From positions 12,598-76,597 of IMG/VR virus record IMGVR_UViG_3300001598_000004: 64,000 bases of DNA. One strand, 5' to 3'. Below, piece by piece: positions 9,099-62,901 of this stretch (positions are counted from its first letter, which is position 1; every line of letters starts with the position of its first letter). The notes under the pieces were generated by a model. The model saw nothing but the letters and a program-made list of their open reading frames with translations, searched no databases and had not been told where the DNA came from. The stretch is from a virus (Duplodnaviria > Caudoviricetes). Position numbers and translations under genes: made by a program.

Positions 9099-9154
9099 CA
9101 AAAATATAGTTTTTTAATCAAAAAAGAAATTTTCTGATTAATCACGAATAAACA
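9099..9154 (-). promoter_or_regulatory. Late-type promoter TGTTTATTCG-N38-TATTTTTG upstream of the head/tail operon
   Basis: + strand CGAATAAACA at 9145-9154 and CAAAAATA at 9099-9106, 38 nt apart; same geometry at four other operon starts. Confidence 0.7.
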
Positions 9155-9185
9155 TCAATAAAAATCCTTTCATTTTTCCCACTTT

Positions 9186-9620
9186 TTAGCCGTTTTGCGA
9201 CGGTTTTACCCTTTCTCTGGAATAACTACCAAGCAAAACTTGTTTCTTGGGCATAAAGCGTTTTATTTTACTATGGATCTTGTCAAAGCTGTATGCGTCT
9301 TTGTTCTTTATGCGGCAAAGGTGATAGTCGAGCTTTCGTATGTTTGCGCTTCGGTTGTCGTCGAGTCGCTTCTGATCCTTCGTTTCGTGGTAGCCGCCAT
9401 CTACCTCGATGATGAGTCGAAGGGAAGGAACATAGATGTCGGCATAGTATGTCTTTCTTGGTGTAGTAATCGGGTACTGAGGTAAGAACCTTAGTCCGAG
9501 CCTACTCAACGCCCTCCCGACGGCACTCTCTGCTTTCGTAGTTGATGCTAACAATTCTCTTCGGAAATTTGAAGAAAACAGCTTTTTGTTTTTTTCTTTT
9601 TTATTTTTTTCTTTTAGCAT
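9186..9620 (-). CDS. DUF559 / Vsr-like endonuclease
   Basis: TKAES, PQYPI, YYADIY, LIIEVDGGYH, DDNRS motifs. Confidence 0.85.
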   Translation of the reverse strand: MLKEKNKKEKNKKLFSSNFRRELLASTTKAESAVGRALSRLGLRFLPQYPITTPRKTYYADIYVPSLRLIIEVDGGYHETKDQKRLDDNRSANIRKLDYHLCRIKNKDAYSFDKIHSKIKRFMPKKQVLLGSYSRERVKPSQNG

Positions 9621-9662
9621 AATAATATATATATTTTAAGCTTTCTTTTTCTTATATCTTTT

Positions 9663-9782
9663 TCTTTATCTTTATCATATGCCCCTACCCCTGCCCCAGA
9701 AGCTGGGGCTACGGCTGGGGCAGAGCCTACCCCAGAAACTGGGGCTACGGCTGGGGCAGAGCCTACCCCAGAAACTGGGGCA
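9663..9782. repeat. 36-bp tandem repeat (x2 plus partials) sharing a 22-mer and a 26-mer with the replication initiator gene
   Basis: Unit CTGGGGCTACGGCTGGGGCAGAGCCTACCCCAGAAA. CTGGGGCAGAGCCTACCCCAGA at 9715-9736 and 9751-9772 equals 49759-49780. 9663-9688 is the reverse complement of 49806-49831 with 1 mismatch. Confidence 0.85.
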
Positions 9783-9856
9783 GAAATAAAGGCTTAACTC
9801 GCCTTTATTGTTGTAGTGGAGCTGAGAGCCTTGTTTTTGTGGGCAAAAATACTAAG

Positions 9857-9961
9857 AATTATATTAAACTAATCATTTCTTCTTAAAAAATATTAAAAAT
9901 TTGTTTATTTTAATGTTTTTCTGATTAGTTTAATATAATTTTACCCCATCAAACATTTTGT
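9857..9961 (+). promoter_or_regulatory. Early-type promoter/leader module with a 19-bp perfect inverted repeat
   Basis: AATTATATTAAACTAATCA (9857-9875) / TGATTAGTTTAATATAATT (9922-9940), followed by TAATTTTACCCCATCAAACATTTTG. Confidence 0.65.
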
Positions 9962-9984
9962 CTAACTTTTAAACATTAAGTTTT

Positions 9985-10095
9985 ATGGAGATTATCATCT
10001 TATCAGTTCTAACAGTTTCAGTAGCTTTCATTTTCGGAAGCATAATCGGTCAGGCAATTTACAATTACTTGGCAAAACTATTAAGTGACAAATGA
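9985..10095 (+). CDS. Small hydrophobic (single TM) peptide, 36 aa
   Basis: MEIIILSVLTVSVAFIFGSIIGQAIYNYLAKLLSDK; first ORF after the promoter module. Confidence 0.5.
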   Translation: MEIIILSVLTVSVAFIFGSIIGQAIYNYLAKLLSDK

Positions 10096-10248
10096 GCAAA
10101 TCAGACACAGAGTTAATCAACAAAGCAGAAAACACCGACGACTTCTGCGCTCTTTGCGACTTGGAAATGCTTGCCGTTTCCAGTGTCGCAAAAAGTGTGA
10201 TCCATAGCCTCGCCGTTAGAGCCTACCACTTGGAAGAGTATTCCGTTT

Positions 10249-60454: not shown

Positions 60455-60489
60455 AAAAGAGGCAAGTCCGCGAAGGACTTGCCTCTTTT
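60455..60489. terminator. Strong bidirectional terminator
   Basis: 15-bp stem AAAAGAGGCAAGTCC/GGACTTGCCTCTTTT. Confidence 0.85.
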
Positions 60490-60624
60490 TCTTTTATTGG
60501 TTCAATATTTACCTGTTATCTTGCTCATTCTCTTCAAAGGAAGGAACATATCGAAGTCCTCTCCTATGCTATGAGCGTAATCGAGTAATCGTCTGCCGAC
60601 TTCGGAAGCAAGAATGTGGAATGC

Positions 60625-60870
60625 CTACCTCTCAATCCACATAGCCTCTATTCTCGCCTTTACGCTGTTTATTGAATTAGCATTATTACATTCACAGCAT
60701 ATAACTAAACTCTCGACACTGAAACCCGCAGCGTCAGCCCAGAACACACACAAGGCTCTCGCAGTGCTTACATCTTCCTTGCGGCATCCGCTTATAATAT
60801 CTTCTTCGGAAACATTGCACACTCTTGCACAGGTTTCAACGATTTTATCAAAAATCTCCTTCTTTGTCAT
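60625..60870 (-). CDS. Second DnaA domain IV-like small protein
   Basis: VCNVSEEDIISGCRKEDVSTARAL; similar to 54374..54670 (VCNVEEDDFLSRKRITNLNIARGL). Confidence 0.55.
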   Translation of the reverse strand: MTKKEIFDKIVETCARVCNVSEEDIISGCRKEDVSTARALCVFWADAAGFSVESLVICCECNNANSINSVKARIEAMWIER

Positions 60871-60876
60871 AGAGTC

Positions 60877-61389
60877 CTAATCTTTCTTTATCTTCCACAC
60901 AAATATGAAAATTGTGGCTAAAATAGCCAGTATGAAGGCGTAAAACAGCAAATCTTTAATACCGCCAAGTATATCCTCTTTTCGCGCCTTCTCGACATAT
61001 TTATCAGCGTTAGATTTGCTTTCTGCGATTTCCTTATAATGGTCGGCAATAGATTTGTAGTAATCAAGGCTATCATTGCTCGCTGATCCATGATATGTAT
61101 CGTGCGACTCTATCGCTTTTGCGGTATCACCTTGTGAGGTAAGATAGTAAGTATAGATATGCTTCTCTATAACAGTATCACGCTCAACCTTGACCGAGGA
61201 CTTATACAAAGTATCGTGCTTTTCAAAGTACACAGTATCTGTATGGCTCTCAATCTTGGTTTCAACCCTTACCACTTCTTTAGTAGGTGCGCACCCCGTT
61301 ACCAAGAACGATGCGCACCATACAAATATAAACATTATGAAGATTACAAACTTATTTCTTTTCATAAGCGTTAGTCCTTTTCTACCCAA
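60877..61389 (-). CDS. Spanin-like lipoprotein
   Basis: Signal peptide with lipobox-like LVTGC, C-terminal TM helix; follows the endolysin. Confidence 0.6.
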   Translation of the reverse strand: MGRKGLTLMKRNKFVIFIMFIFVWCASFLVTGCAPTKEVVRVETKIESHTDTVYFEKHDTLYKSSVKVERDTVIEKHIYTYYLTSQGDTAKAIESHDTYHGSASNDSLDYYKSIADHYKEIAESKSNADKYVEKARKEDILGGIKDLLFYAFILAILATIFIFVWKIKKD

Positions 61390-61835
61390 CGATTAGCCTC
61401 CCACTCTCTACGGGTGACAAGACCTTTCGCTACCTTTCCATTCGCATACACCCAACGACGGAACTGAGCCTGTATCTCCTTTGCAGGTGCTTTTGCGACT
61501 ATCTTATTGTATAGAGTGGTAGGTTTCCCATCACTTGCCTTTATAAGGCGTGACGCGCCAAGATTGAAGCCAAAATCAACAAGAGCATCCCATTGCCCTT
61601 GAGTCAAGGTTGGGAGTTTACCTTGCTTTTGCAAATTTCTCAAAACCTCTTCTACATCGTGAATGTCAACGAGCAGTCGTGCCTCTGCTGCTGCCTGAGT
61701 GATAGCCATGCCCATCATTACATTCTTTGTTGATCCATATCCTATTGTAGGTTTGCCAACCATATCACGATACGCAAAGAGCTTGCACCCTTCTGACCTT
61801 TTGATATGTGCTATACATTTCTCACTTGCTTTCAT
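61371..61835 (-). CDS. Endolysin (GH24 lysozyme)
   Basis: SEGCKLFAYRDMVGKPTIGYGST (E-D-T triad), QWDALVDFGFNLG, GLVTRREWE. Confidence 0.95.
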   Translation of the reverse strand: MKASEKCIAHIKRSEGCKLFAYRDMVGKPTIGYGSTKNVMMGMAITQAAAEARLLVDIHDVEEVLRNLQKQGKLPTLTQGQWDALVDFGFNLGASRLIKASDGKPTTLYNKIVAKAPAKEIQAQFRRWVYANGKVAKGLVTRREWEANRWVEKD

Positions 61836-62343
61836 TGTTCTCTATATTTGTTTGTGACATACTTTTCATTACCTCCGCGAGTATCTGTGCCAAGTCCTCT
61901 TTGTTCTTGATAATGACTTGCATTGTATTCTCTGCTTCGCGTATCTCTTCTTTGGTGTGCGTTTTCTCCATGACGCTCTTAAATTCAATAAGGCATAAGA
62001 ATGCGCCGAAGATTGCACTAAAGTACGGATGTTCATAAACATCACATATTGATGCAAGAAGGTCGATGCACGCCAAGCAAAAGTAGGGTAAGTAATAACG
62101 GATGTACTTCTCTGCTGTGCGTTTTAGACCTGTCGATGTTGTTGCGATGCCAGCTTCCCTTGCTTTCTTTATTCCTGTAGCAAGGTCTATGAATGTGGCA
62201 ACCATTACTATTGCAGCTATTGCCACAATCTCAATCATTGTATTATGTCCTAAGAGTAGTTCTTTCATTTCTTTATTGTGTGGTGTTGTCCTAAGTGGAA
62301 TCCTCCATATTCTCACGAACTTAGAGGACCGAATCATTAACAT
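61822..62343 (-). CDS. Holin (phage holin 4-like; true start probably near 62267)
   Basis: TM helices, IDLATGIKKA, EFKSVMEK motifs; directly upstream of the lysin. Confidence 0.8.
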   Translation of the reverse strand: MLMIRSSKFVRIWRIPLRTTPHNKEMKELLLGHNTMIEIVAIAAIVMVATFIDLATGIKKAREAGIATTSTGLKRTAEKYIRYYLPYFCLACIDLLASICDVYEHPYFSAIFGAFLCLIEFKSVMEKTHTKEEIREAENTMQVIIKNKEDLAQILAEVMKSMSQTNIENNESK

Positions 62344-62396
62344 TTTCCAAAATAACTAACTAAACTTGAAATTAAAACCTAAATATGATAATATTT

Positions 62397-62871
62397 CTAA
62401 AGCCAATTCCAACGTTGAATAAGGAGAATGCGGCATACAGTTCCGAGAATGATGCCTAACAGGTCTGCGAGCAGATCCCACACACAGGCATGATTGTTAG
62501 GATTCTTACCATCTGCGTACTCCTTTGTTAATGCGGCAACAAAAGCGCACTCTGTACTATACACTGCTATTATGAAGCATACAATGAAATGCCTCAATTT
62601 GTCTTTTCCGAATTTATCATTATCTTTCATGTTTGCGGTTGTTTAGGGGTTAATTATCTGTAAAGACATGATAGCAATACCACAAGAATACTATTATTGA
62701 TACTACAAGCCCTATTATATGGTAAGTAGTCATGTGCTCCTGTGATACGCAATCCAACGCAACTACCGCAGCGATTGTGGCAATAGCAAATTTCAATACG
62801 TTTTTCTGATTTCGTGTCATATCTTTACTTTTTAAGTGATGTTGCAAAGGTACAAAAAGTATATGACTCAA
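62397..62871 (-). CDS. Two small membrane proteins (62397-62630; 62650-62819)
   Basis: Hydrophobic ORFs at the head of the lysis operon. Confidence 0.5.
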
Positions 62872-62901
62872 TAGGTTTGTTTTTTATCGCACGAATAAAC
62901 A
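62845..62901 (-). promoter_or_regulatory. Late-type promoter TGTTTATTCG-N39-TACCTTTG upstream of the lysis cassette
   Basis: + strand CAAAGGTA 62845-62852, CGAATAAACA 62892-62901. Confidence 0.65.

Follow-up and report, generated by a model that had tools for sequence, protein, structure and literature searches.

The late genes of phages P2, 186 and P4 are transcribed from promoters with poor upstream core elements, which the small phage proteins Ogr, B and Delta activate from a shared site near -55. GafA of Rhodobacter capsulatus and GafY/GafZ of Caulobacter crescentus are direct activators of phage-derived gene-transfer-agent (GTA) clusters (PMC9638019, PMC11150451). The DnaA-like domain of GafA and GafY is needed for activation of GTA promoters, and GafY contacts domains 3-4 of sigma (PMC9638019, PMC11150451). 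In our literature searches, no late-gene switch was found described for phages of Bacteroidales, although the human gut has few viruses more common than these. Here, we analysed a window of 64,000 nt, corresponding to bases 12598-76597 of a 76,597-bp phage contig (IMG/VR record IMGVR_UViG_3300001598_000004), in which a 10-mer, TGTTTATTCG, recurs at a fixed distance upstream of the Bacteroidota -7 box (TAnnTTTG) at the starts of operons. Judging from its conservation, the 10-mer together with the -7 box very probably constitutes a functional late-promoter module. We further propose, with a probability of about 0.6 for the explanation as a whole, that this module is a clade-wide late-promoter signature and that a 98-aa protein resembling domain IV of DnaA acts on it as a class-I-type activator.

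Six exact copies of TGTTTATTCG were found in the window, where 0.15 were expected (six were reached in 0 of 100 shuffles), and seven across the full 76.5-kb circular genome. Six of the seven head the head, portal, ParB/dpd/terminase, small basic protein, lysis and tail operons (Table 1). All six of these boxed sites have an exact TAnnTTTG, with a spacer of 38 nt (N38) at five of them and of 39 nt (N39) at one. The first-pass annotation had described five of the sites, four with exactly 38 nt between the 10-mer and the -7 box and the lysis-cassette copy with 39 nt, and all five were recovered as described, with the major head protein operon, the portal gene, the operon running from ParB to TerL and a lysis cassette with endolysin downstream, as it had stated. 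Its judgement that so exact a spacing is unlikely by chance agrees with the composite pattern, 10-mer-N38-TAnnTTTG, which has four matches in the window vs 0.08 expected. The genome-wide pattern search that it had suggested added two copies that it had missed, namely the orphan in Table 1 and the copy at genome position 11548, which sits within a 149-codon open reading frame (ORF), just upstream of a 1374-aa tail gene.

Primary-sigma promoters of Bacteroidota carry the -7 element 4-5 nt ahead of the transcription start. In Flavobacterium, the -7 element occupies positions -12 to -5 (PMC6847099). With the numbering taken from that study, the word spans -60 to -51 and is centred at -55.5. The earlier proposal of a phage activator that recruits host sigma and thereby defines a late regulon is supported in its architecture by the comparative data below, whereas the position it gave, around -50, is not. 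Among 32 non-redundant sites, only two blocks were conserved, tTGTTTAYWCR and TAnnTTTGC; the spacer lacked any strongly conserved position, with a maximum of 0.7 bits in a column. The box follows about 80% of all copies of the degenerate word. A -33 element (TTG/TTTG), with TTTG expected about 17-23 nt upstream of the -7 box, was absent in 21 of 25 late promoters vs 46 of 83 other boxes. The late promoters would therefore be weak alone and need activation.

Table 1. Predicted late promoters, the candidate activator and associated features. Positions refer to the window unless stated otherwise.
Feature	Position	Strand	Details
Predicted late promoter, head operon	9099-9154	-	TGTTTATTCG-N38-TATTTTTG; first-gene ATG at 9067
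Predicted late promoter, portal	38785-38840	-	10-mer-N38-TACCTTTG; 10-mer begins directly after TerL stop codon
Predicted late promoter, ParB/7-deazaguanine/TerS-TerL operon	46539-46594	-	10-mer-N38-TAGTTTTG
Predicted late promoter, small basic protein	55913-55968	+	10-mer-N38-TACTTTTG; gene from 55999 / 56090-56434
Predicted late promoter, lysis cassette	62845-62901 (10-mer 62892-62901)	-	10-mer-N39-TACCTTTG; likely ATG 62820
Predicted tail promoter	genome 11548, outside window	-	10-mer-N38-TAAATTTG
Orphan 10-mer	60334-60343	-	-7 box absent at N37-39
-7 box of the candidate activator's own promoter	54334-54341	+	TACCTTTG; directly after terminator hairpin 54246-54284
Candidate late activator, 98-aa stand-alone DnaA-domain-IV-like helix-turn-helix protein	54374-54670	+	
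DUF4417 protein, possible partner	54651-55400	+	overlaps activator gene by 20 nt, always follows
Second DnaA-domain-IV-like ORF, 81 aa	60625-60870	-	last gene of late lysis operon
Integrase	46700-47926	-	

An exact-pattern scan of IMG/VR returned 110 stretches, most of them chance-like; eight were relatives of this phage, and six of these relatives' contigs were read whole. In the relatives, the word generalises to TGTTTAYWCR-N38-TAnnTTTG(C), with two to six sites per genome at the same operon starts and unalignable sequence in between. Seven related genomes (G001 and G007-G012) have the word and the N38 spacing at the starts of homologous late operons, and all seven keep both in the homologue of the head operon promoter. 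The closest relative, G001, whose portal is 63% identical, has TGTTTAYTCA-N38-box at five places, preceding lysis, portal, head and tail genes and a 302-aa gene.

A larger test comprised 80 IMG/VR loci (1.39 Mb in total) that encode a homologue of the 98-aa protein and were found with a five-sequence alignment. At least one site was present in 79 of the 80 loci, and all 222 sites detected lie on the strand of the homologue's gene. The spacing was N38 in 204, N39 in 17 and N37 in one, and the controls yielded one site in reversed sequence and 1-9 sites at other spacings. These loci group into six protein clusters and 27 spacer families. The word was absent from the portal-based relatives G002-G005, which served as negative or variant controls; in G004 and G005, both the gene and the motif are missing. 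G003 encodes a homologue that is 27% identical, and its ParB and head operons are preceded, at N39, by another word, TGTTCATAAS. A prophage of the isolate Prevotella sp. tc2-28 (NZ_FNRE01000014.1), with a 39%-identical homologue, carries TGTTTACACG-N39 and TGTTTATTGT-N39 sites before its ParB-like and small-basic-protein genes.

The gene for the 98-aa protein is present in every motif-bearing genome. In each genome it has a -7 box of its own without the late word (in this phage, none was found at -55 of that promoter), is directly followed by the DUF4417 gene and lies 0.7-2.7 kb upstream of the first late promoter on the same strand, which here is the small basic protein promoter. When all ORFs of this phage were profiled against relatives, the non-structural genes that followed the motif were those for the 98-aa protein, the DUF4417 protein and a VRR-NUC nuclease; among DNA-binding candidates, only the 98-aa protein tracks it. 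DnaA_C was the sole match in this protein. A single-sequence search of PDB missed DnaA, and a word-based homologue search gave only two matches; a family profile built from ten members, however, matches PDB entries of DnaA over the whole of domain IV (2z4r, 4e-7; 1l8q/2hcb, 1.4e-3). An Atlas model of the protein (predicted local distance difference test, pLDDT, 0.86) aligns to DnaA C-termini with template-modelling (TM) scores of 0.86-0.90. R26 and R34, equivalent to R399 and R407 of Escherichia coli DnaA, are basic or invariant in the family, and at the positions of the base-contacting residues D433, H434, T435 and H439 other residues are found. Taken together, the co-occurrence and the predicted fold make this protein a good candidate for the reader of the word, and we consider that role probable.

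Of the activators suggested by the first-pass annotation, the protein at 54374 thus co-occurs with the motif in all lineages, and the two others were rejected. At 60625, the 81-aa paralogue occurs only in this phage and its closest relative, and its gene is itself a late one. The helix-turn-helix (HTH) protein at 16350 (16323-16739) is not conserved across the motif-bearing genomes, and neither is a further candidate, an HTH_17 protein at 49145-49357.

In the mechanism that we propose, host RNA polymerase with the primary sigma factor would read the consensus -7 box, and a phage protein bound to the asymmetric TGTTTAYWCR at -60 to -51, on a fixed face of the helix, would recruit or stabilise the polymerase. 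Activation would be of class-I type, like that by Ogr at -55 of P2 late promoters. The activator would most likely be the 98-aa protein, expressed from a promoter of its own where the replication/recombination block ends. Like DnaA domain IV on its 9-mer, it may bind as a monomer and in a single orientation, and it would turn on the small basic protein, ParB/dpd/terminase, portal, head, tail and lysis units together.

The resemblance to GafA and GafY, drawn from their published descriptions, is that a DnaA-domain-IV-like HTH would read an upstream site and, by way of the host primary-sigma holoenzyme, switch on phage-type genes for packaging, head, tail and lysis. As in many genomes with a GafA/GafY-type protein (PMC9638019, PMC11150451), the DnaA-like protein has a small gene to itself, which precedes that of a partner (here a possible one). 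In contrast, the protein described here consists of the ~100-aa domain alone, and its neighbour is DUF4417 rather than a fused or adjacent DUF6456/GafZ. The GafA/GafY site lies at -123 to -113 and involves bending by integration host factor (IHF), whereas the present one lies at -60 to -51 with a rigid N38. The host is a member of Bacteroidota with -7/-33 promoters, and a promoter precedes each late unit instead of one long antiterminated cluster.

The late operons of P2, 186 and P4 likewise share an upstream site centred near -55. Ogr-type sites, however, are dyads (TGT-N12-ACA) bound by zinc-finger proteins, unlike the asymmetric 10-mer and the HTH of DnaA-domain-IV fold found here. With DnaA domain IV itself (PDB 1J1V), the candidate shares the fold, the basic-loop arginine and the R407 equivalent, and also, as proposed, the monomeric, oriented reading of an asymmetric 9-10-mer. 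Unlike DnaA, it has no AAA+ or other DnaA domain, its base-contacting residues are changed, and its sites are at promoters and not at an origin. In class I activation of the CRP type, too, the activator binds upstream of the core promoter and on a fixed face of the helix, but canonical CRP sites are dimeric and palindromic and are centred at -61.5, -71.5 and so on.

Several observations weigh against the explanation proposed here, or limit its support. The exact copy at 60334-60343 is not at a promoter of the N38/N39 type. Close relatives make up many of the 80 loci, so that the independent lineages number about 8-10 and not 80. G013, a complete but distant phage with a weak homologue, has a single exact site and is uninformative. 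The Pfam match of the 98-aa protein to Bac_DnaA_C (PF08299; 31.0 bits, E=2.7e-7) falls just below the gathering cut-off of 31.5. Covariation between residues of the recognition helix and word positions 7-10 is suggestive but not clean: the helices of G008 and G010 are close to those of CACR-type lineages, yet their word is YTCR. Finally, since the DUF4417 gene co-occurs with the motif as perfectly as the 98-aa gene does, co-occurrence alone cannot separate the two.

This last point leads to a reading in which the promoters are late and activator-dependent but the word is read by DUF4417, another phage protein or a host factor such as DnaA. We regard it as unlikely. DUF4417 proteins are more conserved than the DnaA_C-like proteins (59-74% identity to the window protein), but domain searches detected no recognisable DNA-binding domain in them (an AF2 model built from eight sequences was poor, with a pLDDT of 54). 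In G003, the DUF4417 protein is 66% identical despite the different word, and the DnaA_C-like protein is the most divergent one. E. coli DnaA stimulates lambda pR, and the commonest variant of the word in the family, (G)TTTACACA, fits the textbook DnaA-box consensus TTWTNCACA at 8 of 9 positions. The variant in the window, GTTTATTCG, fits at only 5 of 9, and a host factor would explain neither the lineage-specific variants of the word nor why relatives without the gene are also without the motif.

The fixed distance to the core promoter and the single orientation would also be expected of a factor-independent upstream element (UP-like or extended) touched by host RNA polymerase, which would make the promoters strong and constitutive. 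UP elements, however, are A/T tracts nearer the core and not an exact, G/C-containing 10-mer at -60 to -51. The word is limited to phages with one gene family and differs among lineages, and it is not enriched in a Bacteroidales metagenome-assembled genome (MAG; 24 matches vs 20 in the backwards control). Virion and lysis promoters that are constitutive could not, moreover, be reconciled with lysogeny, and the genome encodes an integrase; we consider this reading very improbable. We give equally little credence to the word being the operator of a negative regulator that silences late operons in the lysogen, or a recombination or processing signal at module boundaries. The sites do lie at such boundaries, several of them directly after stop codons or terminators. 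Nevertheless, a repressor bound 38 nt upstream of the -7 box would leave the polymerase unoccluded, a recombination or RNA-processing signal does not require exact spacing to that box, and the missing -33 elements argue for a need for activation.

With the signature, late regulons can be recognised from the sequence itself in about a hundred genomes of uncultured phages, and attention is drawn to one small candidate protein. If that 98-aa protein is the activator, the activator-promoter pair would be a compact, orthogonal genetic tool for Bacteroides and Prevotella. DnaA_C-like 'hypothetical proteins' of ~100 aa, common in phage genomes, gain a concrete candidate role, and the idea derived from GafA/GafY would reach beyond the gene transfer agents of Alphaproteobacteria, to true phages in a different phylum. 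A bolder generalisation, which we find doubtful, is that stand-alone DnaA-domain-IV proteins form a widespread, unrecognised class of phage late activators, distantly akin to GafA/GafY, that read asymmetric words resembling the DnaA box. Because the word of the TGTTTACACR lineages matches a DnaA box at 8 of 9 positions, cross-binding might occur between the phage protein and host DnaA. Late transcription could then follow the replication status of the host, or the phage protein could occupy host oriC boxes and block initiation.

The contig was taken as a circular assembly of about 76.5 kb because its first and last 99 bases are identical. It encodes TerL, a portal, a major head protein, an endolysin and a ParB-like protein followed by a 7-deazaguanine cluster. 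A megablast search of 12 kb against GenBank phages returned zero matches, and the best matches of the major head protein in a protein search were at most 25% identical; by these searches, the phages in GenBank include no close relative that has been cultured. Its promoter boxes are of the Bacteroidota type, and homologues of the gene for the 98-aa protein were found in a Bacteroides uniformis MAG and a Prevotella isolate. The phage is taken to be one of gut Bacteroidales, and its clade to be temperate. A scan for the sigma-70 consensus was set aside as irrelevant to a Bacteroidota host.

A second, distinct promoter class precedes early genes (18650-18780, 21730-21860, 26000-26130 and 55390-55515, +). 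It comprises repeated (G)ATTAGTTTT words, a -7-like box whose last base is A (TTATWAATTTTAGA) and, immediately ahead of the ATG, a conserved leader, TAGGAGATTTACA, which was matched 10 times at two or fewer mismatches vs 2.3 expected. G001 has an early class of its own, ATAGATWTATC ... TATTATATTTGCA. At 40978-40991 (-) of that genome, the late word starts within the -7 box of an early-class promoter (TATATTTGTTTATTCA), so that tandem early and late promoters, 50 nt apart, precede the 302-aa gene.

Some of the late words adjoin terminators. The N38 spacer of the small basic protein promoter harbours a 15-bp terminator hairpin (55918-55952), which belongs to the upstream activator operon and whose stem takes in the last bases of the word. 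Several lineages share this arrangement (G010, 13725; G011, 70007). Another terminator, at 62940-62914, precedes the lysis promoter. In the region 60344-60500 (+), the orphan 10-mer adjoins a TTTG-N20-TACTTTTG promoter that faces a strong terminator with a T run (60454-60490). There is no convincing ORF between the two, and a small RNA of about 110 nt may be encoded there.

The promoter before ORF 55999 stood as the first-pass annotation gave it, but the ORF named there is only a 28-codon frame (MGKQTGSTR...), which ends at a TAG (56083-56085) right after a G7 run (56076-56082) and is followed by a 114-codon frame in the +1 frame (55999-56434, +). With the first frame ending at the G7 run and the second following it, the two are probably one gene, and the split probably results from a programmed frameshift or from an error in the assembly or the homopolymer. 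The homologues in G008 (147 aa) and G012 (116 aa) are single ORFs starting MAKGxGxT.

The DUF4417 gene and a ParB-N-like gene (45935-46519) together cover PHROG 940 ('nuclease'), the former at profile positions 167-358 and the latter at 4-154; they would therefore correspond to one fused protein in other phages. The 81-aa paralogue ends at an in-frame TAG, after which 39 codons remain open to a TGA (60493-60870, -). No tRNA genes were found in the window. The TAG could be a nonsense mutation or be read through, and the 39-codon extension resembles the C-terminal helix of the 100-aa paralogue of G001.

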